Below are positions 955 through 34,746 of a stretch of DNA of 37,239 bases, piece by piece. A model generated the notes under the pieces. The model was not told where the DNA came from. It made no database searches and saw nothing but the letters and a program-made list of their open reading frames with translations. The first letter of the stretch is position 1, and each line of letters opens with the position of its first letter. This stretch comes from an uncultured Ectothiorhodospiraceae bacterium (GTDB lineage Bacteria; Pseudomonadota; Gammaproteobacteria; GCA-002705445; GCA-002716945). A program made the position numbers and the translations under genes. The stretch covers positions 64,761 to 101,999 of the forward strand of contig CAYFEQ010000001.1 in assembly GCA_964342155.1 (NCBI GenBank), given 5' to 3'.

Positions 955-969
955 ATATCGGGAGAATTT

Positions 970-1860
970 ATGGAAAAGCCTTATTTATTGCATATGATAA
1001 CACCGGAAAAAAATGTAAGCCCTTTTGATGCCAATATGGCTTATGATGCAGGATGGAATTCTATAATCCCTTACACTGCTGTTGAGATGGAAGAAGTTCA
1101 GACTTTAGTACAGGATGCCATCTTTTCTAGATCAACTTCCGCATTAAAACGAACAGGAATTTTTTTTGGGGGAAGAGATTGTCACATGGCAATGGATATG
1201 ATTGATGAAGCAAAGAAATCAATGGTCCCGCCATTTGAAGTTTCAGTCTTTGCTGACCCAAGTGGCGCATTTACAACTGCTGCTGGGATGGTTGCTGTTA
1301 CTGAAAAAGCTCTTAAAGAAAAATTTAACCTTACACTTGCAGACACTAAGATTGCTATTTTGGGAGGAACTGGACCAGTAGGAATAGTTTCAGCCGTTAT
1401 TACTGCAAATGCGGGTGCAAATGTGTACATAGTTGGAAGAAATGCAGAAAGAACTGAAAAAGTTGTTAATCTTTGTAAGGAAAGATATAAATCGTCGAAT
1501 GTTAATGTAGGCTTGGATGCCGATAAAGAATCTCTTTTGTTGGATACTGACATAGTTTTTGGAACAGCAGCACCAGGAATAGAGATTATGAATAAAGATT
1601 TAGTAAAAAATTCAAAATCATTAAAAATTTGTGCTGATACAAACGCAGTTCCTCCATCAGGAATATTTGGTGTTGACGTTAGTGATAATGTTGTAAAAAT
1701 GAAAGACTCAGCATCAGATTGTTATGGAATTGGCGCACTAGCAATTGGAAACGTAAAGTACAAAGCCCAACATGAATGTCTCAAACTAATGTGTAACACC
1801 GATAAGCCAGTTTATCTAAATTTTGAGCATGCATTTGAATTTGCACAGAAGAATGCGTAA
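970..1860 (+). CDS. mtdB: NAD(P)-dependent methylene-H4MPT dehydrogenase
   Basis: NVSPFDANMAYDAG, VQDAIFSR, VFADPSGAFTTAA, GGTGPVG, DTNAVPPSGI and IGALAIGNVKY motifs; GGAG RBS at 961; position after mptG. Confidence 0.93.
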   Translation: MEKPYLLHMITPEKNVSPFDANMAYDAGWNSIIPYTAVEMEEVQTLVQDAIFSRSTSALKRTGIFFGGRDCHMAMDMIDEAKKSMVPPFEVSVFADPSGAFTTAAGMVAVTEKALKEKFNLTLADTKIAILGGTGPVGIVSAVITANAGANVYIVGRNAERTEKVVNLCKERYKSSNVNVGLDADKESLLLDTDIVFGTAAPGIEIMNKDLVKNSKSLKICADTNAVPPSGIFGVDVSDNVVKMKDSASDCYGIGALAIGNVKYKAQHECLKLMCNTDKPVYLNFEHAFEFAQKNA

Positions 1861-2923
1861 GGCTGTATTAATAATAAATACCCATGCAGAATATTTAGCA
1901 ACACAGGCAGAAAAACTTGGATATAAAACCTTTTGTATTGATAGTTTTAATCAAAATAGTCTAAATAAAATTGCTAAACTAAAATTTCTAAAAAATTTCA
2001 TAAAAAAAATACGGAAGAATCACAAATTAGTGAAATTAATATATGGTTCTGGGTTAGAAGATAAACCTGATATTTACACAACATTACACTCTGAAGTAGA
2101 TGTGCAAGGCAATCCTTTAGAAGTTCTTGAATATTGTAATGATATATTAAATGTTGAAAAAGCATTGAATATAAGCGGTTTACAAATTCCTAGAACAAGT
2201 TTTTCTCCACTTCCTTCTAATATTAAAACTGTTGTAAAACCAATACAAAGTTATGGAGGATTACATGTCAATTTTACTAAACAAAATATAGAAGATATTT
2301 ATTATCAAGAATTTATTCCTGGGTCAACATTTTCTATATCTTTTTTCATAAATAAGAATAAATTTTCTTTACTAGGTTTTAATAAATTATTTACGTTGAA
2401 AGATTATTCTACTAATCCATTTATACATGCAGGAGCTATGAATATTAAAAGAATTAAAATATTTGATCAGGTTGAAAAATCAACTGAAATATTTTCATCG
2501 CTGATTGGTTTGCAAGGCTATAACAGCATAGATTTCAAAATATATGATAATAAAGTATTTGTTATTGATATAAATCCAAGAATTACATCAACTTTTAAGA
2601 TATATAACGAATTACTAACTAATGATTTGATGAAATCACAAATAAATCTTAAAAATTCTGAAATAAATAACACCTATTCTTATCCTAAAAAATTCTATGG
2701 TTTTGTATATATGTTTAGTAGGGAAAATTTTAAATTTCATAACAAAATAAAAGGTGATTCATCTATAACGAATCTACCGAAGGAAGGTGAAATCATAAAA
2801 AAAGACAATCCAATCTTTACAATAAATTTTTCCTCTAACTCACCATCTACGCTAGTTAGCTCATTAAGGAAAAAAATTAGTATGACAACGAAGCAGTATA
2901 ACTGTTATGATATAGACATCTAG
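1853..2923 (+). CDS. orfY: ATP-grasp protein OrfY of the H4MPT/methylofuran cluster
   Basis: YGSGLE, GNP, VVKP..SYGG, YYQEFIPG and IDINPR ATP-grasp motifs; lies between mtdB and mch. The ATG at 1853, overlapping the mtdB end, is preferred over 1823. Confidence 0.8.
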   Translation: MRKAVLIINTHAEYLATQAEKLGYKTFCIDSFNQNSLNKIAKLKFLKNFIKKIRKNHKLVKLIYGSGLEDKPDIYTTLHSEVDVQGNPLEVLEYCNDILNVEKALNISGLQIPRTSFSPLPSNIKTVVKPIQSYGGLHVNFTKQNIEDIYYQEFIPGSTFSISFFINKNKFSLLGFNKLFTLKDYSTNPFIHAGAMNIKRIKIFDQVEKSTEIFSSLIGLQGYNSIDFKIYDNKVFVIDINPRITSTFKIYNELLTNDLMKSQINLKNSEINNTYSYPKKFYGFVYMFSRENFKFHNKIKGDSSITNLPKEGEIIKKDNPIFTINFSSNSPSTLVSSLRKKISMTTKQYNCYDIDI

Positions 2924-2925
2924 AT

Positions 2926-3894
2926 ATGACAGATCAGGTAAGCATAAATAAAATCACAAAACCGCTTGTTGAAGAATTAATTGAAAATACAGATCAACTA
3001 AATCTTGGAATGACAACAAGTTCTGGTGGCGCCAAATTAATTGATGCTGGCATTAGTCACAAAGGTTGCCTTGAATCAGGAAGATTAATAACTGAAATAT
3101 GTATGGGTGGTTTGGGAACTGTATCATTGTCTATGAACAATACTTTTGAAAACTGGCCTTTATCAATAGATGTACATAGCACTAATCCAGTTTTAAGTTG
3201 CCTTGCGAGTCAATATGCTGGTTGGAGCCTTTCCCATGTGAAAGATGAAGAGAATTTTAATGCTCTTGGCTCAGGACCTTGTCGTTCATTAGCGTGCAAA
3301 GAAGAATTGTTTAAAGATTTAGGTTATCAGGATAAATTTTTTTCAACTGTTGCAATTATGGAAGTAGACAGCACACCTCCTCAAGAAATTATTGATAAAA
3401 TAGTTAATGATTGCAACATTAGCGAGAAGAATCTTACTATTATCTTAACTCCAACAAAGTCGCTTTCTGGCTGCGTGCAAATTGTTGGCCGTGTTCTAGA
3501 AGTTGGTATGCATAAACTACACGAACTTGGCTTTCCTTTAGATAAAGTTGTGGATGGATTTGGTTCAGCACCATTACCTCCGCCTGCTCCAGATTTTTTG
3601 AATGGAATGGGAAGAACTAATGATGCTATTTTATATGGAGGCAAAGTACATTTGTTCGTTGATGTTCCAGATGATGAGGCTGATGAACTCGCAAAAAGAT
3701 TACCCAGTTTAACTTCTAGTGATTATGGAAAACCATTTGCTGAAGTTTTTAAAGAATACAAGTATGACTTCTATAAAATTGACAAAATGCTTTTTAGCCC
3801 AGCCTATGTAATAGTGACATCAATCAAGACTGGAAACACCTTTAGAAATGGAAAAATCAATTCAGAGTTGATAGATAAATCTTTTGCTAAATGA
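2926..3894 (+). CDS. mch: Methenyl-H4MPT cyclohydrolase
   Basis: EICMGGLG, CLASQYAGW, LGSGPCR, GRVLEVGMHK, MGRTNDAILYGG, SSDYGKPF and FYKIDKMLFSPA motifs. Confidence 0.96.
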   Translation: MTDQVSINKITKPLVEELIENTDQLNLGMTTSSGGAKLIDAGISHKGCLESGRLITEICMGGLGTVSLSMNNTFENWPLSIDVHSTNPVLSCLASQYAGWSLSHVKDEENFNALGSGPCRSLACKEELFKDLGYQDKFFSTVAIMEVDSTPPQEIIDKIVNDCNISEKNLTIILTPTKSLSGCVQIVGRVLEVGMHKLHELGFPLDKVVDGFGSAPLPPPAPDFLNGMGRTNDAILYGGKVHLFVDVPDDEADELAKRLPSLTSSDYGKPFAEVFKEYKYDFYKIDKMLFSPAYVIVTSIKTGNTFRNGKINSELIDKSFAK

Positions 3895-4808
3895 GAAAAG
3901 TTTTAATATTAACTGATCAGAAGGGTTGGCATTTCAATCAATTACAAGAATCTTTTCTAAGAAAAAAAGTAACAGTTGAATCCTATGATTTAACTGAACT
4001 GACCTTATCTTTCATGAATAATGAAAATAAAATATTTCACAACAATAAAGAATTAAATAATGTTACAGATGTAATAGTCAGATTTATACCAAATGGTACT
4101 TTAGAGGAAATTGTAACGTACCTAAATATTTTGAAGATATTTAAAATGAAAGGTGCAAATGTAATTAATACTGCAGAGAATATTGAATTAACGGTAGATA
4201 AATCTTTAACAACCGCTTTACTTAATCATAAAAATATAAATACACCAAAAACTTGGGTAATCAGAGGTAAAAGGGAAACGAAGAATCTCGTGAGTAAACT
4301 ATTAAAAGAATATAGATTAATATATAAACCAATTTTTGGGTCTCAAGGAAATCACATAAAAAAAATTGAAAGATTGGAAGATTTAGATTCTATTAATAAT
4401 GTAAGTAATATTTATTATTTACAAGAATTTTTAAATACTGAACCATTCCATGATTACCGAGTTCTTATTGTAAAAAGTATGGATAAAACTAAAATTTTTT
4501 CGATGATAAGATATGGAAAATCGTATATTAATAATTTCTCAAAAGGTGCTAAATGTGTGCCGATAAAATTAGACAAGAAAATGGCTGAGACTGCATTATT
4601 AGCTTCAGAAATTGCTGATTTACCGTTATGTGGAATAGACATTATTAAACAAAAAGATAAATTTTTTATTATTGAGGTCAATGGAATCCCAGCATGGAAA
4701 GGATTGCAATCTATCAATAAAGAAAATATCGCTGATGTAATAGTTAATGCATTTCTTAATGCGTCAAGACATGAAGAAGGTCTGTCTATCAAACCTGTTT
4801 CTAAGTAA
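3891..4808 (+). CDS. orf5: RimK-family ATP-grasp glutamate ligase Orf5 (C1-cofactor polyglutamylation)
   Basis: GWH, VRFIPNGTLEEI, VDKSLT, YKPIFGSQG, YYLQEF, DYRV and EVNGIPAWKGLQ motifs; ATGA overlap with mch. Confidence 0.88.
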   Translation: MRKVLILTDQKGWHFNQLQESFLRKKVTVESYDLTELTLSFMNNENKIFHNNKELNNVTDVIVRFIPNGTLEEIVTYLNILKIFKMKGANVINTAENIELTVDKSLTTALLNHKNINTPKTWVIRGKRETKNLVSKLLKEYRLIYKPIFGSQGNHIKKIERLEDLDSINNVSNIYYLQEFLNTEPFHDYRVLIVKSMDKTKIFSMIRYGKSYINNFSKGAKCVPIKLDKKMAETALLASEIADLPLCGIDIIKQKDKFFIIEVNGIPAWKGLQSINKENIADVIVNAFLNASRHEEGLSIKPVSK

Positions 4809-5689
4809 TGTATAAAAGCATTAATTATCCTGAAATTGATTCTGGAGCTAAGTATGCTTTATTAAAAGATGCATATCTTTTTGCTTGTATGAAAGACATT
4901 GAAGTTATAAAACCTGGCAATGTATACATCAATGCTCCTCATGAAGATACTGATTCTGATGATTATTTAAAGAGCTCGGAACATAGCTGCAAACATTTAT
5001 TCCTTGAAGATCTGAATCTTGGTAATCGGATTTTTCTTTCTATCGAAGAGACATCTAAGTTTATAAAAAAAAATACTAATTTAGGAATTATTCTAACCTG
5101 TGCGCCTTTAATTCACTCTCTTATATGTTATAAAGAGTACCCTCTAAAAAAGGGTTTAAGCTTGACTCTAGAGAACACTACATCAGCTGATACCATAGCA
5201 ATCTGCCAAGCCATTAACCTCGTAAACCCAGGCGGCTTAGGTGAGAGTAAACAATATGATACACGTACATTACCTGATATTGGGCTCTTGGAGATTATGA
5301 AATATTCATCAAAATATGACAGGATTGCCTATCAATACACTAATATGTTTAAAGATGTTCTAGATTTTGTGGTGCCATGCCTAAATAGCTATCAGAATCG
5401 TTATAAATCGCTTAGTTTGTCCCTTTCTCTGACGTTTTTAGACATACTAAGAAATATACCAGATTCTCATATTCAGAGGAAATTTGGGCATAAAATAGCA
5501 AAAAAGACTAGTAATCAAGCCAATGATTTGCTAAAAATATTAGTTACGGAGAGAATTAATCAAGATTCGTTCAACAAGCGTTTGAGAGAACTTGATTATG
5601 AATATAAAAAACAGGGAATTAATCCGGGGACGACAGCAGACTTACTTGTCGCAGGTTTGATGATAAAAAAAATTTTCAAGGATACTTGA
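4808..5689 (+). CDS. orf7: CitG-like triphosphoribosyl-dephospho-CoA synthase family protein Orf7
   Basis: KPGNV, NTNLGII, NPGGLG, PDSHIQRKFG and INPGTTADL motifs; TAATG overlap with orf5. Confidence 0.88.
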   Translation: MYKSINYPEIDSGAKYALLKDAYLFACMKDIEVIKPGNVYINAPHEDTDSDDYLKSSEHSCKHLFLEDLNLGNRIFLSIEETSKFIKKNTNLGIILTCAPLIHSLICYKEYPLKKGLSLTLENTTSADTIAICQAINLVNPGGLGESKQYDTRTLPDIGLLEIMKYSSKYDRIAYQYTNMFKDVLDFVVPCLNSYQNRYKSLSLSLSLTFLDILRNIPDSHIQRKFGHKIAKKTSNQANDLLKILVTERINQDSFNKRLRELDYEYKKQGINPGTTADLLVAGLMIKKIFKDT

Positions 5690-5762
5690 AGTTGGATTAT
5701 GCGCTCAAATTTGTGATTAGAAATTAAAGCTTGAGGCCCAATAAATAACACAGGAGATAATA

Positions 5763-6278
5763 ATGGCAGTAGTTGATAAAGTGTTAGTAGGTGAAGCTCT
5801 AGTTGTTACCGAAGGTGGTGATAATGAAATTTCACATATTGACTTACTAATGGGTCCACGTGGATCAGCAGTAGAAGATGCGTTTTGTAATTCACTATGT
5901 AATAACAAAGATGGATTTACATCGCTATTAGCAGTGGTTGCACCTAATTTACAGTGTAAACCAAGCACAGTTATGTTTAATAAAGTAACAATAAAAGGTG
6001 CAAAACAAGCAGTACAAATGTTTGGTCCTGCACAAGCAGCTGTAGCAAGAGCTGTAACTGATTGTGTTGAAGATGGAACAATTCCAGAAAAAGAAGCCGA
6101 GGATATTTTTATCTGCGTAGGTGTATTTATTCACTGGGATGCAAGTGATGATACTAGAATCTATGATTACAACTATGAAGCTACCAAAATGGCAATAAAA
6201 AATGCTGTTGCTGGTAAACCTAGTGCTGGAGAAGTTGTAGCAGGAAAATCTACTCAACATCCATTTTCACCAAAATAA
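5763..6278 (+). CDS. fae: Formaldehyde-activating enzyme (5,6,7,8-H4MPT hydro-lyase)
   Basis: [49 protein letters not shown] and GVFIHW motifs; strong CAGGAG RBS at 5751-5756. Confidence 0.96.
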
Positions 6279-6292
6279 CAATTATGAGAATT

Positions 6293-6329
6293 GCCAACCG
6301 TGTTTCAAGCTCGGTTGGCTCTTTCTTTT
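6293..6329 (+). terminator. Probable intrinsic terminator after fae, overlapping the 3' end of orf17
   Basis: GCCAACCG (6293-6300) and CGGTTGGC (6312-6319) form a perfect 8-bp stem, followed by TCTTTCTTTT. Confidence 0.7.
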
Positions 6330-6994
6330 AGGAAGCTAAATTTCCTGAGTTTGTTCATTGATAATAAACTAGAGACAAGAACGCCACTAGCTCCTAGATT
6401 TTTTACAAACTTTATATCTAACATTGATCTAATTCCCCCAGCAACGTAATATTCAGTTTTGTATTTTTTTGTAATAAACTTTTTTATTACATGAAAGTTT
6501 GGTTTTAATTTTGTACCAACTCTTGATAAATCCATTATAATTACTTTTTTTGGATGTGTTTTTATACATCTATAAATAGATTTCGGTCCTATAATTCCAT
6601 TTTTATAGTCTATTGAACAAATATGGTTTTTGAATTTTTCTGAACTTAATTCAAAATCTTTTGCCTTTTCACTACAGAATATTGGGATGTAATTATTATA
6701 ATTTTTATCTAATTTAATCTTGTTAAGCCCTGAGTCTATCCAAAAATTAACTTTTGAAAATTTTTTTAGTATCTGTATTAAAAGATTGTGATTAACTTTG
6801 TTAAACATTATTGCATCAAGATCTGCAATGTAGATTGTTTTTGGAGAATATATATCTATTAAATGTCTAATTATTTCAACAGGCTCTGTGGTATTGTATA
6901 GTTTAGGATTTATTTTTTTATATGTGTTTCTATCGCCTTTTAAAGCTGTAACTACTTGACTATCTAATATGTCTATAACGGGAATGATGTCCAT
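6305..6994 (-). CDS. orf17: HisA/HisF-like TIM-barrel protein Orf17 of the H4MPT/methylofuran cluster
   Basis: IIPVIDI, GDRNTY, YIADLDAI, FWIDSG, IIMDLSRVG, VAGGIRS and GVLVSS motifs; cluster context. Confidence 0.85.
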   Translation of the reverse strand: MDIIPVIDILDSQVVTALKGDRNTYKKINPKLYNTTEPVEIIRHLIDIYSPKTIYIADLDAIMFNKVNHNLLIQILKKFSKVNFWIDSGLNKIKLDKNYNNYIPIFCSEKAKDFELSSEKFKNHICSIDYKNGIIGPKSIYRCIKTHPKKVIIMDLSRVGTKLKPNFHVIKKFITKKYKTEYYVAGGIRSMLDIKFVKNLGASGVLVSSLLSMNKLRKFSFLKERANRA

Positions 6995-6996
6995 CT

Positions 6997-7971
6997 ATGA
7001 TTAAGATACTAATATATGAATATGTTACAGGAGGTGGTTTAATAAATGAAGATTTAAGTTCAACTTTACTACACGAAGCCAAACTAATGACATCGAGGCT
7101 TCACAGCGATCTGAGTATATCAGATGAGGTTTCATTCAGCTTCTTCTTAGATGAAAGATTGAAGAATCTTGCTAGACCACAATCAATCCTTATAAATAAA
7201 CAGAATTCAAATAAGATCTATGATGAAAATTTTCTAAAAAAATTTGATTATGTATTGCCAATACTTCCTGAAACGAATCTCAATCTATATAAATATACTA
7301 AGTTTTTAGAAGAAAAAAAAATAAATAAAATTATTTCTGATAAACAAACAATCCTTTCTTTATCAAATAAACTATCTTTCTATAATTTGTTTATCAATCA
7401 AAAAATAAATGTCATACCAACATATAACATTAAGGAGATAAACAAAATAAAAAAAATAAAAAAATTAGTTATCAAAGATAAATACGGAGCAGGTTGTTCT
7501 TTTGTTAAAATTTTTAAAAACTCATCTAAGAAAGATTTTAAGGATTATAATAAGAATTACATTGTCCAGCCATATATCGATGGGAAACCATATAGCATAT
7601 CAGCATTCTTTGATCAAAATGATTTATATCTATTAAGTATTAATAGACAAGACATAAAAATAACAAAAAACTTTATTAAATTAAATAAAATAATTGTTAA
7701 TGATAAAATTGTAGATGATACAAAAATTTATGCCTTATTAGAAAAGATAAAATTGATATTACCAAAGTTATACGGGTATATTGGTATAGATATAATAATT
7801 AATAAAAAAGATTTATATGTTGTTGAAATAAACCCAAGACTAACAACTTCATATATTGGATTAAATGAGACTTTAGGCATTAATCTTGTTAATCTAATTA
7901 TTGGAAAAAAAATAAAGAAAAGAATTATCAGTGGAAAGAAATTTTGCATTAATTTAAATGAAAACAAATAA
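6997..7971 (+). CDS. orf1: ATP-grasp protein Orf1 (MfnD-like tyramine/tyrosine-glutamate ligase family)
   Basis: YEYVTGGG, ILPET, GAGC, VQPYIDG, GYIGID and EINPRLTTSYIGL motifs. Confidence 0.82.
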   Translation: MIKILIYEYVTGGGLINEDLSSTLLHEAKLMTSRLHSDLSISDEVSFSFFLDERLKNLARPQSILINKQNSNKIYDENFLKKFDYVLPILPETNLNLYKYTKFLEEKKINKIISDKQTILSLSNKLSFYNLFINQKINVIPTYNIKEINKIKKIKKLVIKDKYGAGCSFVKIFKNSSKKDFKDYNKNYIVQPYIDGKPYSISAFFDQNDLYLLSINRQDIKITKNFIKLNKIIVNDKIVDDTKIYALLEKIKLILPKLYGYIGIDIIINKKDLYVVEINPRLTTSYIGLNETLGINLVNLIIGKKIKKRIISGKKFCINLNENK

Positions 7972-9010
7972 AATTAAAAATTTATATCTAGGTTGGGATA
8001 TTGGAGGAGCACATATTAAGCTGTCTACTATAAAACCCAATAGTTTTTCATTTAACATATATAAATGTAACTTATGGAAATCAACTGATTTATTAAAAAA
8101 AATACTTCATTCTGTTTGTAGAAAATATAAGAGAGGATTCAATATAATAAATGTTATAACAATGTCCGGTGAAATGTGTGATATTTTTGATTCTAGGAAT
8201 CAGGGAGTTAAACATATTTTAGAAATATTTAAAAACATCAATAAAGAAAATTATGTATTCTCTACTAAGAAACCATTTTTTTTTAAACTTAGTGAAAAAA
8301 TCAATCCAGAATCTATATCATCAGCAAACTGGTTTGCAACTGCAAAGTTTCTTGAAACAAAAGTAAATAATGCAATTGCAGTTGATGTTGGATCAACAAC
8401 AACAGATATTATAGTTATAAAAAAAGGTGTCTGCATTAATAAAAATTATAGTGATTTTTCGAGACTACAATCATCAGAATTGATATATATGGGTATATTA
8501 AGAACACCAATACATGCTGTTACAAAAGAAATATATAGTGGCCAAAAGAAATTTTCTATAATACCAGAAAATTTTTCCAATATGTCTGATGTATATAGAA
8601 TTTTATCAGATATAAAACCAAAAATTGATTATTCAGAGAATTGTGATTCTAAAAACAAGTCCTATAGAAACAGTTTGGTAAGATTTTCTCGTATAATAGG
8701 CTTCGACTACCATTCAAAAAATGAAAGAATAGTGATAAATCTAGCTAAGAAAATAAAATTATCTCAAAAAAATTATCTTATGCAAAAAATTACTCATACA
8801 TTACAGCAGCATTTCCAAAGTAAAGAATCAGTAAATATTATTGGAATTGGAATAGGAAGTTTTTTAATTGAAGAGATTTCTAAAAAAATTAAAATGAGTT
8901 ATAAAGATTTTAACAGTTTTTGTCAAGGTGGTAGAAAGCAATTATTCTTGCCATCAGATATTGCGCCAGCTTACTCTATAAGTACATTATTTAAGTTAAG
9001 AAATGAATAA
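7958..9010 (+). CDS. orf9: Hydantoinase/oxoprolinase-family protein Orf9 (MfnF-like)
   Basis: GWDIGGAHIK, TMSGEMCDIF, SANWFATA, DVGSTTTDII and ELIYMGILRTP motifs. Confidence 0.87.
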   Translation: MKTNKIKNLYLGWDIGGAHIKLSTIKPNSFSFNIYKCNLWKSTDLLKKILHSVCRKYKRGFNIINVITMSGEMCDIFDSRNQGVKHILEIFKNINKENYVFSTKKPFFFKLSEKINPESISSANWFATAKFLETKVNNAIAVDVGSTTTDIIVIKKGVCINKNYSDFSRLQSSELIYMGILRTPIHAVTKEIYSGQKKFSIIPENFSNMSDVYRILSDIKPKIDYSENCDSKNKSYRNSLVRFSRIIGFDYHSKNERIVINLAKKIKLSQKNYLMQKITHTLQQHFQSKESVNIIGIGIGSFLIEEISKKIKMSYKDFNSFCQGGRKQLFLPSDIAPAYSISTLFKLRNE

Positions 9011-10364
9011 GATTGAATTTGATTATTACAGCAACACTTTAGAAATCTTTGATTTTTTGAAAGACCAAGATTGGTCAGTTTTTTTATGTAGCAATTTTGA
9101 TGTATTTGATAGAGAAAAATATGATATTATTTCCTGCTGTCCAATTAAAAAGATCATCGCATATCAAAACGCAACAATTGTTGAAACCAATGGTTCTAAA
9201 AAAGTTTTTAGAGACGACCCTATAGATGTACTTAAAAATATAATGAACAAATCTTTTTCTAGTAATCATACTGATTTACCTTTTTCCGGAGGCGCTATAG
9301 GATATTTTTCATATGACTTGGGAAATAAATATGAATCAGTTAAGCCTATTGGAGTTGATACCGATAATACTCCAATCATGGCATTTGGTATTTATGATTG
9401 GTCAATAATAATTGATCATAAATTAAAAAGGTCAATTTTGATATACACTACTGAGAATAATTTAATAAAAGAGATTATAAAAAACTTTAAGAAGAAAAAG
9501 TTTTCATTAATCAAAAAACGTGAATTTTCTATTCATTCACAGTTTGAATCTAATTTAAGTTATGAAGAATATGTTGAAAAATTTAATTCTATAAAATCCT
9601 ATATTGAAAAAGGGGATTGTTATCAAATAAATTTTGCACAACGATTTTCTCTTTCATATAAAGGAGATACCTGGGAAATATTTAAGAAGGTTTTGACAAA
9701 ATACAAAGCTCCATACTCTTCATATATGAATTTCCCATTTGTTAAAATTTTAAGTTATTCTCCAGAAAGATTTTTGCAAATAGAAAATAATCATGTAGAA
9801 ACAAAACCTATCAAAGGCACTAGACCAATACATCAAAACAAACAAAAAAATTCTCAATTAAAAAAAGAACTTGTTGATTCAAATAAAGATAAAGCTGAAA
9901 ATCTTATGATAGTTGATTTATTGAGAAATGATTTAGGCAGAAACTGTAATTTCGGCTCTATAAAGGTAAAAAAACTTTTTGAAATAGAAACTTTTTCAAA
10001 TGTGCATCATTTAGTTAGCACCATAGAAGGTGAGATATCAAAAAAGAGTGATGTTTTTAAATTAATAAGAGGCTGTTTTCCTGGAGGATCAATCACAGGT
10101 GCTCCAAAAATACGATCTATGCAAATAATTAATGAACTTGAACCAAATAGAAGAAGTATTTATTGTGGGTCAATTGGCTATATTAGTTTTAATGATAAGG
10201 TAGACTTAAATATTGCTATTAGAACTATTATTGCAAATAAAGAACATCTTTATTTCTGGGGTGGCGGAGGTATAGTTTATGATTCTAATGTTAAATCAGA
10301 ATTTCAAGAAACTTTAGATAAAGTTAATCCAATTATAAATGCTCTCAAATCAAGCACTACTTGA
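9003..10364 (+). CDS. pabB: Aminodeoxychorismate synthase component I
   Basis: PFSGGAIGYFSYD, GDCYQIN, SPERFL, TKPIKGTRP, AENLMIVDLLRNDLGR, FPGGSITGAPK and NIAIRT motifs; fits supply of p-aminobenzoate for methanopterin. Confidence 0.9.
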   Translation: MNKIEFDYYSNTLEIFDFLKDQDWSVFLCSNFDVFDREKYDIISCCPIKKIIAYQNATIVETNGSKKVFRDDPIDVLKNIMNKSFSSNHTDLPFSGGAIGYFSYDLGNKYESVKPIGVDTDNTPIMAFGIYDWSIIIDHKLKRSILIYTTENNLIKEIIKNFKKKKFSLIKKREFSIHSQFESNLSYEEYVEKFNSIKSYIEKGDCYQINFAQRFSLSYKGDTWEIFKKVLTKYKAPYSSYMNFPFVKILSYSPERFLQIENNHVETKPIKGTRPIHQNKQKNSQLKKELVDSNKDKAENLMIVDLLRNDLGRNCNFGSIKVKKLFEIETFSNVHHLVSTIEGEISKKSDVFKLIRGCFPGGSITGAPKIRSMQIINELEPNRRSIYCGSIGYISFNDKVDLNIAIRTIIANKEHLYFWGGGGIVYDSNVKSEFQETLDKVNPIINALKSSTT

Positions 10365-15969: not shown

Positions 15970-16300
15970 GGGAGTCAGCAATGCAGTTGCTGCAACTTGC
16001 AGAGGAAAGTCCGGGCTCCATAGGCAAGAACGCCAGGTAACTCCTGGGAAACGTGAGTTTACGGAAAGTGCTACAGAAAATAACCGCCAGAAATCTGGTA
16101 AGGGTGAAAAGGTGAGGTAAGAGCTTACCACGTATTTGGTAACAAATACGGCTAAAGCAAACCCCGTTCGGAGCAAGGCAAATTTATAGCGTAATGTCAG
16201 CCTAAGACTTGCTATATGGTATGCTGCTTGAGGTTTTTGGTGACAGAAACCCTAGATTAATAACTGCACTCGACAGAACCCGGCTTATTTGTTGACTCTC
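15970..16300 (+). ncRNA. rnpB: RNase P RNA, bacterial type A
   Basis: Conserved GAGGAAAGTCCGGGCTCC and GACAGAACCCGGCTTAT segments; terminal P1 helix GGGAGTCAGCAA/TTGTTGACTCTC; usual position upstream of mraZ. Confidence 0.96.
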
Positions 16301-16415
16301 AGCCCATTTTCTTATAATTAAATTAATATAAACTTGTAAGTTATTGTTTATAAAAGATTTAATAAAACCATTTAAAAAATCACCATATAAACACATAAAT
16401 TGATCAGTGTGATGC

Positions 16416-16444
16416 TTGCATATGTTAAAAAAAACGCATATAGT
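16416..16444 (+). promoter_or_regulatory. Sigma70 promoter of the dcw operon (Pmra)
   Basis: TTGCAT (16416-16421), a 17-nt spacer, then TATAGT (16439-16444). Confidence 0.65.
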
Positions 16445-16488
16445 GTTGATAAATGGTGTTTTTTGTTAAATTGTGGAGAATAATGGTA
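16443..16488 (+). promoter_or_regulatory. MraZ autoregulatory binding repeats (10-bp period)
   Basis: GTGTTG (16443), ATGGTG (16453), TTGTTA (16463), GTGGAG (16473) and ATGGTA (16483) at exact 10-nt spacing, resembling known GTGG[A/T]G MraZ boxes. Confidence 0.65.
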
Positions 16489-16491
16489 GAT

Positions 16492-16944
16492 ATGTTTAGA
16501 GGCATACATAATATAAATCTTGACGCTAAAGGTAGGCTAGCTATCCCTACTAAGTATAGAAGCGCCATAAATGATCAATCATCTGGGAATATGATAATTA
16601 CAGTTGATCCAGGTGAAAAATGCCTTCTGCTTTACCCGCTATCTTCTTGGAATGATATTGAGAAACAAATCAATGACTTACCTGCTTTTCAAAAAAACTC
16701 CCGTAGAGTACAAAGATTATTAGTTGGTCATGCAGAAGATATACAGATGGATAAAGCTGGAAGAATTTTAATATCTCAGCCCTTAAGAGCTATCGCAGAA
16801 TTAAGTAAAAAAGTCACGATGATTGGCCAAGGAAAAAAATTTGAAATTTGGGGAAATAATCACTGGGAAAACAAGATATCAAAATGGAGGACTGAAGAAA
16901 CAGATGAGTCTGAAGAATCGGTTTTAGGAGGAATTAGAATCTGA
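16492..16944 (+). CDS. mraZ: Transcriptional regulator MraZ
   Basis: MFRG...NLDAKGRLAIP and MDKAGRILI repeats, GQGKKFEIW; likely start is the ATG at 16492. Confidence 0.95.
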   Translation: MFRGIHNINLDAKGRLAIPTKYRSAINDQSSGNMIITVDPGEKCLLLYPLSSWNDIEKQINDLPAFQKNSRRVQRLLVGHAEDIQMDKAGRILISQPLRAIAELSKKVTMIGQGKKFEIWGNNHWENKISKWRTEETDESEESVLGGIRI

Positions 16945-17141
16945 TGGATATAACAAGGTGTTTTAGAACATTGGGTATAAGTGGTCATGAAGATATGAGT
17001 GCCATCAAAAAGGCTTTCCTTAAAGTTGCTTTGAAATATCACCCTGATAAAACAAAAAATGATGTTAATTTGCTTCAAAGATTTATAGAAGCTCGGAATG
17101 CATATGACAGCATCATCAAATTTAAAAAGGCTATTAAATGA
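16944..17141 (+). CDS. Stand-alone J-domain (DnaJ-domain-only) protein, 65 aa
   Basis: LGI...IKKAF.K.ALKYHPDK...F..A.NAY J-domain signature with intact HPD; AGGAGG at 16926-16931; TGATG overlap with mraZ and ATGA overlap with rsmH. Confidence 0.88.
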   Translation: MDITRCFRTLGISGHEDMSAIKKAFLKVALKYHPDKTKNDVNLLQRFIEARNAYDSIIKFKKAIK

Positions 17142-18085
17142 GTAACTTAGCAAAACATGTGCCAGTCATGCAAAATGAATCACTTAATGCATTAAATATA
17201 CAAAAAGCTGGGATTTATGTTGATGCTACTTTTGGTTTTGGAGGTCATTCTCAAGCCATATTAAGTAAATTAGATGAAGAAGGCAGGCTATATGCGATAG
17301 ATAAAGATACTTCAGCAATTGAATTAGCAGATAAAAGAATTATAAAAGATGAAAGATTTACCCTGAAACAAGGATGTTTCTCCTCTCTTGAATCCTTTTC
17401 AAAAGAATGGGGAATTCAAGGGTCAGTAAATGGCATATTATTTGATCTTGGTGTTTCATCTGAACATTTAGAAAATCCAAAAAGAGGATTTAGTTTTCTA
17501 AGAGAAGGCCCAATTGATATGAGGTTTGATCAAAGTTCAGGTAATTCTGCAGGTGATTGGCTGGCTTCAGTTAGCGAAAACACGTTAGCTAAGATAATTA
17601 AAGAATATGGAGATGAACGTTACGCAAAAAGAATCGCCAAAGGGATTGTTACTGAAAGGGTTAAAGAAAGGATTAATACTACTAAAGATTTAGTAAATAT
17701 AATCAATAAAGCCATACCAAAAAATGAAACCAAAAAACATAATGCAACGCGAACATTTCAAGCAATCAGAATACATATCAATCAAGAATTAGAAACACTT
17801 AAGAAATCATTAGAAAAAACTTATAACATATTAGCTCCAAAAGGAAGGTTGGTATTGATAACATATCATTCCTTAGAAGAACGAATAATAAAGGATTTTA
17901 TAACTCTTACAGATAAAAGTTTATCTGCACCAAAAGACTTACCTTTAACTGAACAATTTCTAACAAAGATGTTTAAAATCATCAACAAACCGCTTAAACC
18001 TACAGACGAAGAAATAGAAATTAATAAAAAATCTAGATCAGCAAAACTAAACGTTTTAGAGAAATATAATGAAAATAATTCTTAA
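17138..18085 (+). CDS. rsmH: 16S rRNA m4C1402 methyltransferase
   Basis: HVPVM, YVDATFGFGGHS, LFDLGVSS, RGFSF..EGPIDMR, ATRTFQAIRI.IN.EL and YHSLEERI motifs. Confidence 0.95.
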   Translation: MSNLAKHVPVMQNESLNALNIQKAGIYVDATFGFGGHSQAILSKLDEEGRLYAIDKDTSAIELADKRIIKDERFTLKQGCFSSLESFSKEWGIQGSVNGILFDLGVSSEHLENPKRGFSFLREGPIDMRFDQSSGNSAGDWLASVSENTLAKIIKEYGDERYAKRIAKGIVTERVKERINTTKDLVNIINKAIPKNETKKHNATRTFQAIRIHINQELETLKKSLEKTYNILAPKGRLVLITYHSLEERIIKDFITLTDKSLSAPKDLPLTEQFLTKMFKIINKPLKPTDEEIEINKKSRSAKLNVLEKYNENNS

Positions 18086-18338
18086 TATTTCAATTTTTTT
18101 TGTGATAGCTTTTTCATCTTTTTTAGTTATATATACTAAACATCAAAATAGAATTATGAATATTCAAATAGAAAGTGTTGAAAAAGAATTATCAATAAAA
18201 GTTAATCAATATAAGGAACTATTAAATATCAAAACAAATTTATTAGAGAAAGAATTAATGAGAGAGGGGTTTAAGAAGAGTTTAGGGATGGATATACCCT
18301 CAAAAGATAGAATTATTTATTTAGATTTAGCTGAGTAG
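18069..18338 (+). CDS. ftsL: Cell division protein FtsL
   Basis: Small bitopic protein right after rsmH: N-terminal TM helix, H..R, coiled coil and LGM..P tail. Confidence 0.75.
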   Translation: MKIILNISIFFVIAFSSFLVIYTKHQNRIMNIQIESVEKELSIKVNQYKELLNIKTNLLEKELMREGFKKSLGMDIPSKDRIIYLDLAE

Positions 18339-18354: not shown

Positions 18355-19497
18355 ATGTTTGAGTTAATTGAAAATTATAGTCAGAATGCCGTGATTAAAG
18401 TCATTGGTGTTGGCGGTGGCGGCGGAAATGCTGTTCAATCGATGTTAGAGTCAAAGATACACGGTGCTGAATTCATAGTAGCGAATACCGATGCTCAAGC
18501 TTTGAATGACATAAAAGGTGCCACAACAGTCCAATTGGGTTCTGAAATTACAAAAGGACTTGGAGCAGGTGCTGATCCAGAAATAGGTAAGCAGGCTGCA
18601 GATGAAGATAGGGATAAGATTCAAGATGCAATACAAGGAGCTGATATGTTATTTATTGCTGCTGGTATGGGAGGTGGCACTGGGACAGGTGCAGCACCTG
18701 TAATAGCCCAATGTGCACATGATATGGGCATCCTAACGGTTGCAGTTGTAACAAAACCATTTGATTGGGAAGGAGTTGAAAGGAAGAAACATGCCGATGA
18801 TGGTATAGCTAAATTAGAAGATTGGGTTGATTCTCTAATTATTCTTCCAAACTCTAAACTTGAAGAAGTCTTTGGTGGGAATGCACCAATATTTGATGCA
18901 TTTGTCCATGCAAATGATGCTCTTCGAGGTGCAGTTAAAGGTATCGCTGAGATAATAACCATTAGAGGTTTAATTAATGTTGATTTTGCAGATGTTAAAA
19001 CTGTAATGTCAGGTAAAGGTAAAGCTATGATGGGATCTGGTGTTGCAAGAGGTGAAGGACGCTCGGAAGAAGCAGTAAGTCTGGCTCTTAGCAGTCCTTT
19101 ATTAGAGAATATCGATCTACATGGTGCTAGTGGTGTTTTAGTTAACATTACTGCAGGAGAAGACCTATCTGTCAGTGAATATAATAGCATTGGAAATACA
19201 ATAAAACAGATTGCTGCAGATGATGCAACAATCATTACGGGTTGTATTAAAGAAGAAGATGCAAGTGGTGAACTTAGAGTTACTATCATCGCAACAGGTT
19301 TTGATGAAAGTAAAGAATCTGAAGAATCTACAACATTGACGGATGAAAAACAATTAGAAAATCAGGTGTCACCATTAAGACCAGTTCAAGAAACTATGTT
19401 TGAAGAAAAATCACCTCAACTTTCAACTGATAATTCTGAAAGTAAAGATGGAGATGATTTAGACATCCCTGCTTTTTTAAGGCAACAAGCTGATTAG
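18355..19497 (+). CDS. ftsZ: Cell division protein FtsZ (unusual position)
   Basis: IKVIGVGGGGGNAV, GAGADPEIG, GMGGGTGTGAAP, INVDFADV and C-terminal DIPAFLRQQAD; GGAGGT RBS at 18342-18347. Confidence 0.98.
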   Translation: MFELIENYSQNAVIKVIGVGGGGGNAVQSMLESKIHGAEFIVANTDAQALNDIKGATTVQLGSEITKGLGAGADPEIGKQAADEDRDKIQDAIQGADMLFIAAGMGGGTGTGAAPVIAQCAHDMGILTVAVVTKPFDWEGVERKKHADDGIAKLEDWVDSLIILPNSKLEEVFGGNAPIFDAFVHANDALRGAVKGIAEIITIRGLINVDFADVKTVMSGKGKAMMGSGVARGEGRSEEAVSLALSSPLLENIDLHGASGVLVNITAGEDLSVSEYNSIGNTIKQIAADDATIITGCIKEEDASGELRVTIIATGFDESKESEESTTLTDEKQLENQVSPLRPVQETMFEEKSPQLSTDNSESKDGDDLDIPAFLRQQAD

Positions 19498-19500
19498 AAA

Positions 19501-21240
19501 ATTATAAACAACAGCAGACAAAGCGCATGGCGGCAATATTTCATTTACCTTATTGCCGCCACTTTTTTTATATTTATTTTAATAAGAGTAGTATTACTTC
19601 AAGTTTTTGATACTGACTGTTTTTTATTAAATAAAAATAAATGTAAAAACAACTTAAGTTCAGTTGCAGATAAACGCCAAATTGTTAATAGAGTTATTGA
19701 TACTAGTAGAGGAACAATATTTGATAGAAACAATGAAATCCTCGCAATGAGTCTTCCAAGAAAAACATTATGTATTAATCCAAATATGTTAAGTAAACTC
19801 TCCAAAGAAGAAATAATAAAATATAAACCACTATTAAAAATACTTGCAACTGATGAAACTAGATTTTGGAAATTGATAAACAAATATAAAAAAAGAAAAG
19901 AGTTTTATCTTAGAAGAAAGATCAATGACAAATTAGTTTATAAAATTAATCAATTAAACCTACCTTTTGTATATTTTATTAAAGAATATCATCGTGTATA
20001 TCTTGGAGGTAAAGCCTTTTCAAATGTAATTGGCTTTACTGATATAGATGATGTTGGTCAAGAAGGGATTGAATTGTCTAAAAATGAATCACTTACATCA
20101 ACAAAAGGGTTAAAGAAAATAAAAAAAGATAATTTAGGTAGATCCATCCAAACTATTGAAATAATTAAACAACCAATTTCTGGAAAAGATATTTATTTAT
20201 CATTAGACAAAAATATTCAAATAATTGGTTATAACGTCTTAAAGAAATATGTTGAAAAATATTCAGCTGATAGTGCATCTTTAGTACTTGTTAAAAATAA
20301 AACTGGAGAAATTATTTCTATGGTAAATTACCCAGCATTTAATCCAGACATTCGACATGAGATGAAAGGAGTTAAAATAAAAAACAGAGTAGCTACTGAA
20401 GTATTTGAACCAGGATCTACAATGAAACCTTTCATTATCCTTGCAGCCTTAAATGCTAATTCTGTCAATCAGCAGGACTTAATAGATACGACACCAGGTA
20501 TAATCAAAATTGGTGAAAAAAAAATTAAGGATCCACGTAATTATGGGAAATTAACACTCTCACAAATTATTGAAAAATCGAGTAATGTTGGAGCTGTTTT
20601 AGTATCTAGGAGTTTAGATAAAAAAGATTTATGGAATACATTAACATCATTACAATTTGGACAGAACTTGTATACTGGTTTTTCCGGAGAACAATTTGGT
20701 GAACTAAATCATCATTCACAGTGGAAGTCAGTTAATCAGGAAACGATAGCTTATGGTTACGGAATTTCTACAACATTACTACATTTATCTAGCGCATATT
20801 CTATTCTTGCAAATCATGGAAAATCTATACAACTAACTTATTTAAGAGTTGAAAGCGATGATGAAATTTTTGAGGAAGATATTATTGATGCAACTTTATC
20901 AAAAGATATATTGAAAATGATGATTCAAGTAGTTAAAAAAGGAACAGGAACTAAGGCATCTTTAGATAAATATACGGTTGCTGGTAAGACGGGGACCGTT
21001 CAAATCTTAAAGAAAAAAGGATATACATCAGAGGAACATAATACATTATTTGTGGGAGTAGTCCCCGCTACTAATCCACAGTATGTTGCTGCTATAATAG
21101 TTAGAAAGCCTAATCCAGGTAAAGATAAGGTATCAGGTGGAAAAAATGCTGCTCCGATTTTCAAAGAATTTATGAGTCAATCACTAAACCTTTTAAGGGT
21201 ATATCCAGATAAAAAAATAGTGGAAAATGAAAAAGAATAA
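19501..21240 (+). CDS. ftsI: Septal peptidoglycan transpeptidase FtsI (PBP3); start codon non-canonical or unresolved
   Basis: The frame is open from 19498 and reads KIINNSRQSAWRQYFIYLIAATFFIFILIRVVLLQV...SRGTIFDRN, giving the WR motif, TM helix and RG.I.DR. Catalytic motifs are EPGSTMK, SSN and KTGT. The first ATG (19747) would remove the membrane anchor. Confidence 0.9.
   Translation: MINNSRQSAWRQYFIYLIAATFFIFILIRVVLLQVFDTDCFLLNKNKCKNNLSSVADKRQIVNRVIDTSRGTIFDRNNEILAMSLPRKTLCINPNMLSKLSKEEIIKYKPLLKILATDETRFWKLINKYKKRKEFYLRRKINDKLVYKINQLNLPFVYFIKEYHRVYLGGKAFSNVIGFTDIDDVGQEGIELSKNESLTSTKGLKKIKKDNLGRSIQTIEIIKQPISGKDIYLSLDKNIQIIGYNVLKKYVEKYSADSASLVLVKNKTGEIISMVNYPAFNPDIRHEMKGVKIKNRVATEVFEPGSTMKPFIILAALNANSVNQQDLIDTTPGIIKIGEKKIKDPRNYGKLTLSQIIEKSSNVGAVLVSRSLDKKDLWNTLTSLQFGQNLYTGFSGEQFGELNHHSQWKSVNQETIAYGYGISTTLLHLSSAYSILANHGKSIQLTYLRVESDDEIFEEDIIDATLSKDILKMMIQVVKKGTGTKASLDKYTVAGKTGTVQILKKKGYTSEEHNTLFVGVVPATNPQYVAAIIVRKPNPGKDKVSGGKNAAPIFKEFMSQSLNLLRVYPDKKIVENEKE
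19528..19569 (+). terminator. Intrinsic terminator-like hairpin downstream of ftsZ, inside the ftsI coding sequence
   Basis: TGGCGGCAATA (19528-19538) and TATTGCCGCCA (19551-19561) form a perfect 11-bp GC-rich stem, followed by C and T7. Confidence 0.8.
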
Positions 21241-32460: not shown

Positions 32461-33714
32461 ATGATGAATAATCTCGATAAGAGTGAAGCCATTGTAGCTT
32501 TGGATGTTGGAACAACAAAAATCCTTTGTCTTGTTGCTGACTATAACGATGAGGGTAATCTCAGAATTGTAGGAATTGGCGATGAACCCTGTGATGGGCT
32601 AGAAAGAGGTGTTATCTCAGAGATACAGTCTACGGTATCAAGTATAAAAAGATCTGTTAATAAAGCCAGAAGTATCTCTTCTCACAAGATTGAATCCGTA
32701 ACAACTGGTATAGCTGGAAGTCATATACAATGCTTTAATGGTAATGCAGAAATAAATATTACAAATGATGAAGTTACCGAAGAAGATAAAATAAAGGTTG
32801 TAGAAAATGCTAGAGATATACAAATCCCCAATGATCAAGAAGTACTTCATGTTATTCCTCAGTATTATTCGATTGATGGGCAGATTGGAATAAGAGAGCC
32901 AATAGCAATGGCAGGTGCAAGACTGGGGGTCAATGTACATATAATAACTTCTTCTACTACAGCAAAAAAAAATCTAACTAAATGTATAGAGAACAGTTTG
33001 TTGGATGTTGATCATTTTGTTCTAGAACCAGTAGCCTCAAGCTATTCTGTGTTATCTGAAGAAGAACGTTCCTTGGGTGTTTGTTTAGTTGATATTGGAG
33101 GTGGAACAACTGACGTTGCAATTTTCACAGATGGAACTATTAAACATACATCTGTTATACAGATTGCCGGTCAAATGATAACTAACGATATTAAAATTGG
33201 TTTGCGCACATCAACTGAAGCAGCGGAAGAAATAAAAATACAACATGGATCTCTCATGAATAATCCTGATGACAGTGAAAAAATGATAACAGTACCTTCT
33301 GTTTCGGATAAACCAGATAATGAAGTTAGCCTAACTAATTTAAGTCATATTATAGGATGCAGGATTGATGAAATTTTTGAAAAAATACAGATTGAAATCG
33401 AAAACAGTGGTCATTCAAGCAAAATAAGATCAGGAATTGTTTTTACTGGTGGTGGAGCAAGACTATCTGGTCTTGATGATTATGCTGAAGCAAAATTTTC
33501 ATGCCCAGCTAGGATAGGTGCCCCCGCTAATATTCCAGGAATTGGTAATGTGAGTGGGAAAGCTAGGTATTCAACTGCCGTTGGACTCCTACTCTACAGA
33601 GAAGAAAAATTGAAAGATATGCCTCACAGGAGTACTTTGGAAGATAATCCTATATTAGCCTTCATTAATAGTTTTTGGACTAAATTATCTGCATATTTTC
33701 ATAAAGAACTTTAA
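32461..33714 (+). CDS. ftsA: Cell division protein FtsA
   Basis: LDVGTTK, VDIGGGTTD, AEEIK..HG, VFTGGG, YSTAVGL and an amphipathic C-terminal helix. Confidence 0.96.
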   Translation: MMNNLDKSEAIVALDVGTTKILCLVADYNDEGNLRIVGIGDEPCDGLERGVISEIQSTVSSIKRSVNKARSISSHKIESVTTGIAGSHIQCFNGNAEINITNDEVTEEDKIKVVENARDIQIPNDQEVLHVIPQYYSIDGQIGIREPIAMAGARLGVNVHIITSSTTAKKNLTKCIENSLLDVDHFVLEPVASSYSVLSEEERSLGVCLVDIGGGTTDVAIFTDGTIKHTSVIQIAGQMITNDIKIGLRTSTEAAEEIKIQHGSLMNNPDDSEKMITVPSVSDKPDNEVSLTNLSHIIGCRIDEIFEKIQIEIENSGHSSKIRSGIVFTGGGARLSGLDDYAEAKFSCPARIGAPANIPGIGNVSGKARYSTAVGLLLYREEKLKDMPHRSTLEDNPILAFINSFWTKLSAYFHKEL

Positions 33715-33819
33715 TGTATGAATTTTGTCATAATATAGGGGCATATTACTTATAAATTGGGGGTTTTTCCTTAACAAATATAGCGAAAAACCATATACTT
33801 TATTAACTGCTATAAAACT

Positions 33820-34746
33820 ATGATCAAACAACGTACACTTTCGAATAAAATAAAGGCAACAGGTGTGGGCCTACATACTGGTCAGAAGATTAATCTTACT
33901 CTCAATCCTGCTCCAGTTAATACTGGTATAAGGTTTAGAAGAATTGATGTAGATTTAGTTAATACAGATAACAATTCAGTCAAGGCGTCATTAAAAAATG
34001 TTCATGATACAAGATTATCAACAACCCTCTCTAATAAAGTGATCCAAATCTCTACTGTTGAACACTTATTATCAGCAATGGCTGGTTTAGGAATAGATAA
34101 CGCCCTAGTTGAATTAGATGGACCAGAAGTACCTATTATGGATGGTAGCTCTAGACCTTTTGTGTTTATGATTCAATCAGCAGGAATACAAGAACAGAAT
34201 TCACCAAAAAAATTTATAAAAATTAAAAAAACTGTGGAGGTTAAGCAAGATGAAAAGTGGGCTAGAATTGAGCCATTTGAAGGATTTAAAGTGGCATTTA
34301 CAATTGATTTTAATCATCCAACTTTCACAAAAACTTCTCAATCAGCTGAAATAGATTTTTCTACCGTTTCTTATCTAAGCCAAGTAAGTAGAGCTAGAAC
34401 ATTCGGTTTTGCTAAAGACATTGAGATTTTGAGAAAAAACAATCTTGCTCTTGGTGGTAGTGTTAATAATGCTGTTGTTATTGATGACTATAAAGTTATT
34501 AATGAAGAAGGATTAAGGTTTGATGATGAGTTTGTGAAACATAAAATTTTAGATGCAATTGGCGATCTTTATCTCTTAGGTCATGGATTAATAGGTTCTT
34601 TTTCGGCATATAAATCAGGTCACCATCTTAATAATCTATTATTACGTGAATTAATTAATAATGAAGAGGCTTGGGAAGAGTTTATTATAGAGAATGAAGC
34701 TGATGCACCAATTTTCTATACGAAACCAATAGAAATAAAGCCTTAA
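33820..34746 (+). CDS. lpxC: UDP-3-O-acyl-GlcNAc deacetylase
   Basis: [43 protein letters not shown] and KSGH motifs. Confidence 0.97.

Follow-up and report, generated by a model that had tools for sequence, protein, structure and literature searches.

A J-domain-only gene conserved between mraZ and rsmH in the dcw operon of a gammaproteobacterial order

The window, by which we mean the whole 37,239-nt stretch of DNA analysed, carries mraZ, a J-domain-only gene (J gene), rsmH, ftsL, ftsZ, ftsI, mur genes, ddl, ftsQ, ftsA, lpxC and secA, in that order (Table 1). The mur genes were named from their sequences. The product of the J gene (J protein) matches the Pfam DnaJ family (PF00226) at 44.7 bits against a cut-off of 27.8, with residues 6–56 corresponding to profile positions 2–52 of 63; no other Pfam family matched, and the 65-residue sequence contains no membrane segment. 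The original prediction, made from the sequence alone, had described this ORF as a J-domain alone with an intact HPD, and it had also placed the gene in overlap with both neighbours; both descriptions hold. Specifically, the mraZ stop codon TGA (16942–16944) shares bases with the ATG of the J gene (TGATG), and the J gene stop (17139–17141) runs into the rsmH ATG at 17138 (ATGA). The predicted gene is therefore present, but its start had been set at 16926, which is the first base of an AGGAGG, rather than at the ATG at 16944. The longest mraZ ORF opens at 16453.

Table 1. Positions of the J gene and surrounding features, numbered along the window.
Feature	Position	Strand	Description
RNase P RNA gene	15971..16303	+	Upstream of mraZ
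mraZ	16492..16944	+	Start set at the MFRG Met from relatives; stop overlaps J gene start
AGGAGG	16926..16931	+	Within mraZ codons, 12 nt before the J gene ATG; conserved in two genera only
J-domain-only gene	16944..17141	+	65 aa; HPD at residues 33–35; from ORF, Pfam and model
rsmH (mraW)	17138..18085	+	Start overlaps J gene stop
ftsL	18069..18338	+	Pfam 22.1 bits, slightly below the 22.9 cut-off
ftsZ	18355..19497	+	Only copy in the genome; between ftsL and ftsI, not after ftsA
ftsI	19501..21240	+	Frame of the N-terminal membrane helix opens just past the ftsZ stop; no ATG, GTG or TTG ahead of the helix; first ATG at 19747
ftsA then lpxC	32461..34746	+	ftsA 32461–33714, lpxC from 33820; vacated ftsZ site

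The overlaps recur throughout the family of J genes recovered from the order to which the source genome belongs. The J gene start overlaps the mraZ stop at 23 of 23 family loci (17 TRATG and 6 ATGA), and the end of the J gene overlaps the rsmH start at 22 of the 23. The AGGAGG had been read as an SD sequence arguing for expression of the J gene. The motif is indeed present, but in this genome it spells Leu-Gly-Gly codons of mraZ, it lies 12 nt from the ATG, and an SD-like 4-mer or longer precedes the J gene at only 6 of 23 family loci, always 11–13 nt upstream, with an SD 4-mer occurring at 103 of 669 long ORFs genome-wide. The SD was therefore rejected as a sign of expression, and it is the overlaps, together with a signal of selection, that support the J gene. 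Metatranscriptome contigs matching perfectly span 16850–16989 (run X4) and 16941–17091 (run X6), a weak signal from two of four runs and two studies, in which strand and level are not shown, DNA is possibly present, and most bins, including rsmH, are uncovered. A scan for promoters and terminators gave nothing in excess of shuffles.

The order is represented by one gammaproteobacterial family, with 6 genera and 37 genomes; the source genome is 1.1 Mb in size, with 30.8% GC and 98% completeness, and the sequencing runs that contain the stretch are marine. A family profile finds a short J frame in 32 of the 37 genomes, and in each of the 32 (23 + 9 loci) the gene lies between mraZ and rsmH and was never found at another location, at protein identities of 36–95%. 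The remaining five genomes (57–87% complete) are also without mraZ and rsmH, so that the locus is evidently unassembled there. A broken J frame in one assembly (G041) was rejected as a real loss, since mraZ, rsmH, ftsZ and other genes are also frameshifted, which indicates sequencing error. The length of the protein is tightly held, at 62–66 residues in 119 of the 120 best relatives from a profile search. Pooled dN/dS for the J gene is 0.075 (Nei–Gojobori, 11 within-genus pairs), compared to 0.063 for mraZ, 0.097 for ftsZ (10 pairs), 0.108 for rsmH and 0.138 for ftsL, all of these values being approximate because several pairs are saturated at synonymous sites. The J gene had been expected to be present in close relatives and to be under purifying selection, and both expectations are borne out: it occurs in 32 of 32 order genomes with an assembled locus, and its dN/dS of about 0.075 is similar to that of mraZ. 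The J gene is thus real, conserved, and under selection as strong as that on mraZ. Insofar as a genome of ~1.1 Mb keeps it under such selection, the gene does something useful.

The predicted gene order ftsL-ftsZ-ftsI is likewise present in the window, with ftsA followed directly by lpxC. Across the order, the J gene is followed by rsmH-(ftsL)-ftsZ in 31 of 32 genomes, the contig of the remaining one stopping short, and all 14 long loci that extend as far as ftsA have lpxC directly after it. Because the J gene and the ftsZ move are both fixed in the order, however, they represent one lineage and not 31–32 independent tests.

The AlphaFold model of the J protein (pLDDT 88.9) has helices at residues 3–10, 18–31 and 41–64. 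The model shows an extended helix III and no helix IV; the Pfam match also stops at position 52 of 63, a helix IV motif is absent across the family, and the four-helix arrangement of the J-domain is not found. The top Foldseek match is the DnaK-bound J-domain of DnaJ (5NRO_B; rmsd 1.1 over 50 columns, E 0.012), with no match having E under 0.001. The family profile gives a gapless alignment of 63 positions with E. coli DnaJ, so that the DnaJ residue numbering can be used here. According to PMC8215388 (section 8), DnaK is contacted by R22, K26, R27, K48 and K51 of the J-domain in addition to HPD; the same section lists the J-contact sites on DnaK, and describes a K48–D477 salt bridge that helps to pass the client signal from J-domain to DnaK. 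Among 120 metagenomic relatives, 119 retain HPD and 100% have basic residues at positions 22 and 27 (K22, K/R27); K/R51 occurs in 87%. Position 26 is basic in 48 of the 120 and hydrophobic in 72, and position 48 is basic in none and hydrophobic in 118. The DnaJ of the order itself possesses K26 in 19 of 19 genomes and K48 with S51 in 18 of 19 (register on HPD). Its DnaK retains R167, E206, D211, E/D217, Q378, L391, P419 and D477 in all 19, and compensating DnaK changes at the J-contact sites were accordingly rejected. As judged from these contact residues, the DnaK of the order is ordinary, and the small J protein is the odd one. The J protein likely binds DnaK via the HPD loop and basic helix II; the loss of K48, with position 26 often hydrophobic, makes weaker or different stimulation possible, such that the J protein may act on DnaK weakly or in another way. 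Family-conserved residues at positions 8 (R/K), 16–17 (E-D), 58 (I/M), 60 (F/Y) and 61 (R/K) differ from those of DnaJ-type domains. The general J fold presumably puts these positions at the end opposite the HPD loop, where they could serve to bind a partner or stand in for helix IV.

With a J-domain and no other domain, the J protein corresponds to the J-domain-only JDPs of class C, and the class A and B features (G/F region, C-terminal beta-sandwich domains) are absent from its 65 residues. NCBIfam scores are far under the cut-offs for DnaJ (39.8 versus 338), CbpA (23.2 versus 403) and DjlA (21.9 versus 162). The J protein resembles the J-domain of E. coli DnaJ (5NRO_B) in HPD, K/R22, K/R27, K/R51 and the helical hairpin, but has no G/F region, zinc finger or client-binding domains, replaces K48 and often K26 by hydrophobic residues, and, in the model, possesses a longer helix III and lacks helix IV. 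DjlA carries an N-terminal membrane anchor and a TerB-like domain before its J-domain, both of which the J protein lacks. Being J-only is not new, given the 100,483 J-domain-only JDPs counted in the accessible part of PMC10410713; some members of that category are long and contain stretches without annotation, whereas the J family is truly bare (62–66 residues) and fixed in the dcw operon. AtcJ of Shewanella oneidensis, encoded in the atcJABC operon, is also short, bears HPD and has no folded client domain; a 21-residue tail attaches AtcJ to a partner encoded alongside it, as described in the available text of PMC6715715, and AtcJ is aimed in this way at AtcC. The J family differs in having no such tail, in the absence of PX7W (0 of 120 relatives), in its score on NF050028 (23.8 versus 150 bits), and in its neighbours, which are the dcw genes mraZ and rsmH and not atcABC.

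Our best explanation, held at a probability of roughly 0.45, is that the J protein works as a small, AtcJ-like adaptor, directing DnaK to a protein encoded in the same operon. The J protein would be translated by coupling to mraZ, and hence would come under MraZ control. Docking on DnaK-ATP is suggested by the retention of HPD, K22, K/R27 and K/R51, and of the matching DnaK sites in the order. Because the J protein is without a client-binding domain, we infer that a second surface (R/K8, E16-D17, and I/M58, F/Y60 and R/K61 of the extended helix III) aims it, comparable to the short tail of AtcJ. The partner would be an operon product, for which MraZ, RsmH and FtsZ are candidates, and the data do not favour FtsZ over MraZ or RsmH. 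Against the adaptor reading, operon position in a 1.1-Mb genome need not mean shared function.

A possible, albeit rather unlikely, alternative is a DnaK co-chaperone whose function has nothing to do with the dcw products, and whose gene landed once behind mraZ in the ancestor of the order, was kept there for steady growth-linked expression, and was then locked by the overlaps. The distribution of the family agrees with one origin. A J-domain tree of 54 rows splits the family from the remaining sequences, the host DnaJ included, at a single branch (98/91); the tree is rough, with 65 columns and a bootstrap that is not settled. The family is also confined to one order: across 248 scored genomes from other families of Gammaproteobacteria (one genome unscored, two marked unpublished), the matches listed score no higher than 71 bits, with 294 weaker ones outside the list, and fall in long frames, mostly of DnaJ length, compared to 100–124 bits on the family profile for intact orthologues in the order. 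A search of 1.84 billion representatives placed family members at the top of the list. Moreover, the other J proteins of the source genome are DnaJ (Pfam) and an HscB-like ORF in the isc cluster, with no J-domain of CbpA or DjlA type found by Pfam, and a spare J-domain could take another role. However, the J gene was never found elsewhere in the 32 genomes, at identities down to 36%, although murC left the operon in 9 of 14 long loci, and a bare J-domain needs a partner for aiming; these points argue against an unrelated job.

Several routes by which the gene could have arisen were tried and rejected. Recent duplication of the host dnaJ is contradicted by the tree, in which the J gene does not group with host DnaJ (on few columns); the J protein is 37% identical to DnaJ of the same genome. 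Phage origin was rejected because the 80 best viral loci reach at most 49% identity and PHROGs matches are weak and generic. A fusion with a neighbour, represented by a membrane-protein fragment joined to a J-domain on an 845-nt contig (P0008), was read as an assembly chimera, and a search for longer proteins gave no credible fused form of the family, which is weak evidence. A split DjlA, with TerB and J-domain encoded separately, was rejected since TerB is a stand-alone 149-residue protein on another contig (C2, L179:1492–1941); the gene beside this ORF is, we assume, hspQ. No other J gene was found beside dcw genes in 237 non-family loci. A divergent 66-residue J-only protein (P0253), with 93 bits on the family profile and K at position 26, has a sister lineage as its possible source; a search of metagenome contigs did not recover its locus. 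An IscU-type gene lies ~60 kb from the iscR-iscS-iscA-hscB-hscA-fdx cluster on the same contig (C3) of the source genome.

Genomes from outside the order provide an opportunity to separate the J gene from the ftsZ move. The rsmH locus was compared in 46 genomes from 46 other gammaproteobacterial families (16 relatives and 30 small genomes), and none has the J gene there, a single opposite-strand match of 16 bits being taken as chance. mraZ was detected in 39 of the 46, each time 8–134 nt from rsmH (between alignment ends). In three families ftsZ is ahead of ftsI, in the orders mraZ-rsmH-ftsZ-ftsL-ftsI (G100), mraZ-rsmH-ftsL-ftsA-ftsZ-ftsI (G256) and ftsZ-rsmH-ftsL-ftsI (G076, with ftsZ in the usual mraZ place), where ftsL was assigned by size, position and sequence. 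The three different ftsZ junctions suggest that these relocations were separate events. No short J frame was found in the three genomes, their J-domain matches occurring in frames of at least 246 residues. The forward move of ftsZ is thus a recurrent event for which the J gene is not required; the converse combination, a J gene alongside an unmoved ftsZ, was not observed in the order or the 46 other families. The co-occurrence anticipated by the original prediction stands within the order, where the J gene and ftsL-ftsZ-ftsI never separate, but this is one lineage only, and a distribution unrelated to the ftsZ move, which had been named as evidence to the contrary, is partly what we find, three of 46 families having moved ftsZ without a J gene. 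What survives of the proposed division-dedicated adaptor is a selected, HPD-bearing J gene placed for co-translation in the mraZ operon; dedication to division and a tie to the ftsZ move are not supported.

A more ambitious version holds that the bare J-domain aims DnaK at the division machinery, either FtsZ polymers or the MraZ repressor ring, and so constitutes a dedicated Hsp70 division arm in a free-living 1-Mb host that is without Min and ZipA, has rebuilt its operon with ftsZ forward, and uses a non-canonical ftsI start. We consider this version unlikely. Narrower, and in our view quite improbable, is an adaptor dedicated to FtsZ alone, which would bring DnaK to FtsZ and would have arrived with or because of the ftsZ move. 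The joint presence of the J gene and rsmH-(ftsL)-ftsZ in 31 of 32 order genomes is in its favour, yet the three outgroup genomes have ftsZ before ftsI and no J gene, and the genes to which the J gene is coupled within the operon are mraZ and rsmH rather than ftsZ. Searches of the 37 order genomes found neither MinC nor ZipA, a gap that another FtsZ regulator could fill, but 13 of 29 other gammaproteobacteria that were searched likewise lack MinC, and its loss was rejected as specific support. From the physiological side, E. coli is described in the accessible portion of PMC9886141 as filamenting upon DnaK depletion or overexpression; the portions of PMC13254874 and PMC9478669 that were available contain nothing on division.

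The Ftn2/ZipN/ARC6 proteins, in which a J-type domain is associated with division genes or proteins, were offered as precedents. In Synechocystis, FtsZ binding by ZipN reportedly depends on an N-terminal J-type region, according to the available text of PMC6391411, which also calls the domain status of ZipN unclear and gives Anabaena ZipN as a protein of 798 residues with a membrane helix. The J-like domain of ARC6 has PPQ in place of HPD and, as far as the accessible part of the preprint states (bioRxiv 10.1101/2024.01.08.574726), did not bind chloroplast Hsp70, and modulates binding of ARC3 and FtsZ2. These are large, membrane-anchored FtsZ tethers, in contrast to a J protein of 65 residues with no membrane segment and HPD intact. 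ARC6 therefore fails as a precedent for a DnaK adaptor, and counts against the FtsZ-dedicated reading as well.

The absence of a basic residue at position 48 in all 120 relatives, with HPD kept and no client-binding domain, could alternatively indicate a damper: by filling the J-binding site of DnaK while leaving ATP hydrolysis uncoupled from client binding, the J protein would compete with DnaJ. A precedent exists in Rki of phage RB43, a JDP of 237 residues that interferes with DnaK, according to the portion of PMC3486835 available. Rki and the J protein are both of class C, and Rki is no general co-chaperone. However, in the same source the toxicity of Rki requires its 160-residue C-terminal domain, for which the J protein has no counterpart, and shortened Rki partly replaces DnaJ. 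In addition, DnaJ of the order is itself without a basic residue at position 51 (S in 18 of 19), such that one missing contact is tolerated. A damper is thus very improbable. Two further ideas, that the gene is what decay has left of a longer J protein or that its product partners HscA rather than DnaK, draw on the protein stopping where helix IV would start and on the presence of HscA in the genome. They are scarcely credible given the dN/dS of 0.075, the constant length (119 of 120 relatives), the top matches among solved structures and in NCBIfam, which are of DnaJ type with HscB not among them, and the HscB-like neighbour that HscA already possesses.

Returning to the adaptor of an operon product, the J protein would, if partnered, be among the smallest natural J co-chaperones, and would illustrate how a J-domain can be aimed without an extra domain. 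A division client, if true, would provide a specific molecular handle on the filamentation of E. coli under DnaK imbalance. The family also represents a natural test of the K48–D477 salt bridge, which is proposed to couple client binding to ATP hydrolysis, because K48 is lost family-wide while HPD is kept. What appears new here is the placement of the J gene in the dcw operon, J-only JDPs being already known: the arrangement was not found described in the literature searched on J-domains, mraZ, dcw gene order and DnaK–FtsZ; the main bacterial JDP survey may hold it. The outgroup cases, moreover, separate the ftsZ move from the J gene.

Further observations concern the surrounding operon and genome. 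Upstream of mraZ, at 16441–16479 of the window, four GTG/TGG-type words with 10-nt spacing were recognized by eye, and resemble the MraZ binding repeats. In 17 of 21 order loci, no ATG, GTG or TTG precedes the membrane helix of FtsI (window 19495–19750); each of the 17 loci with ftsI in the +1 frame has a CTG or ATT overlapping the ftsZ end, and in the source genus the ftsI frame opens in step with ftsZ, just past its stop. Possibly, weak initiation downstream of the relocated ftsZ holds FtsI at a low level; recoding is another possibility. Two Cys residues following the FtsI membrane helix (DCF...CK, window ~19610–19650) recur in order loci, possibly as a periplasmic disulfide. The murC gene missing between murG and murB in the 9 of 14 long loci noted above is absent there in four genera, and is in place in the source genus and one other. 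One genome (G010) has two extra ftsZ-like matches (contigs C2 and C6) of 47% identity, possibly foreign given 5% contamination, and in another (G017, contig C13) ftsZ is split by a frameshift, with a similar case at locus L063. ZapA is encoded in the source genome (G000), where no HtpG was found. Finally, window positions 1–10364 of this 1.1-Mb genome encode a tetrahydromethanopterin-linked C1 oxidation cluster, comprising genes for methylene-H4MPT dehydrogenase, cyclohydrolase, formaldehyde-activating enzyme, an ATP-grasp protein and a CitG-type protein.
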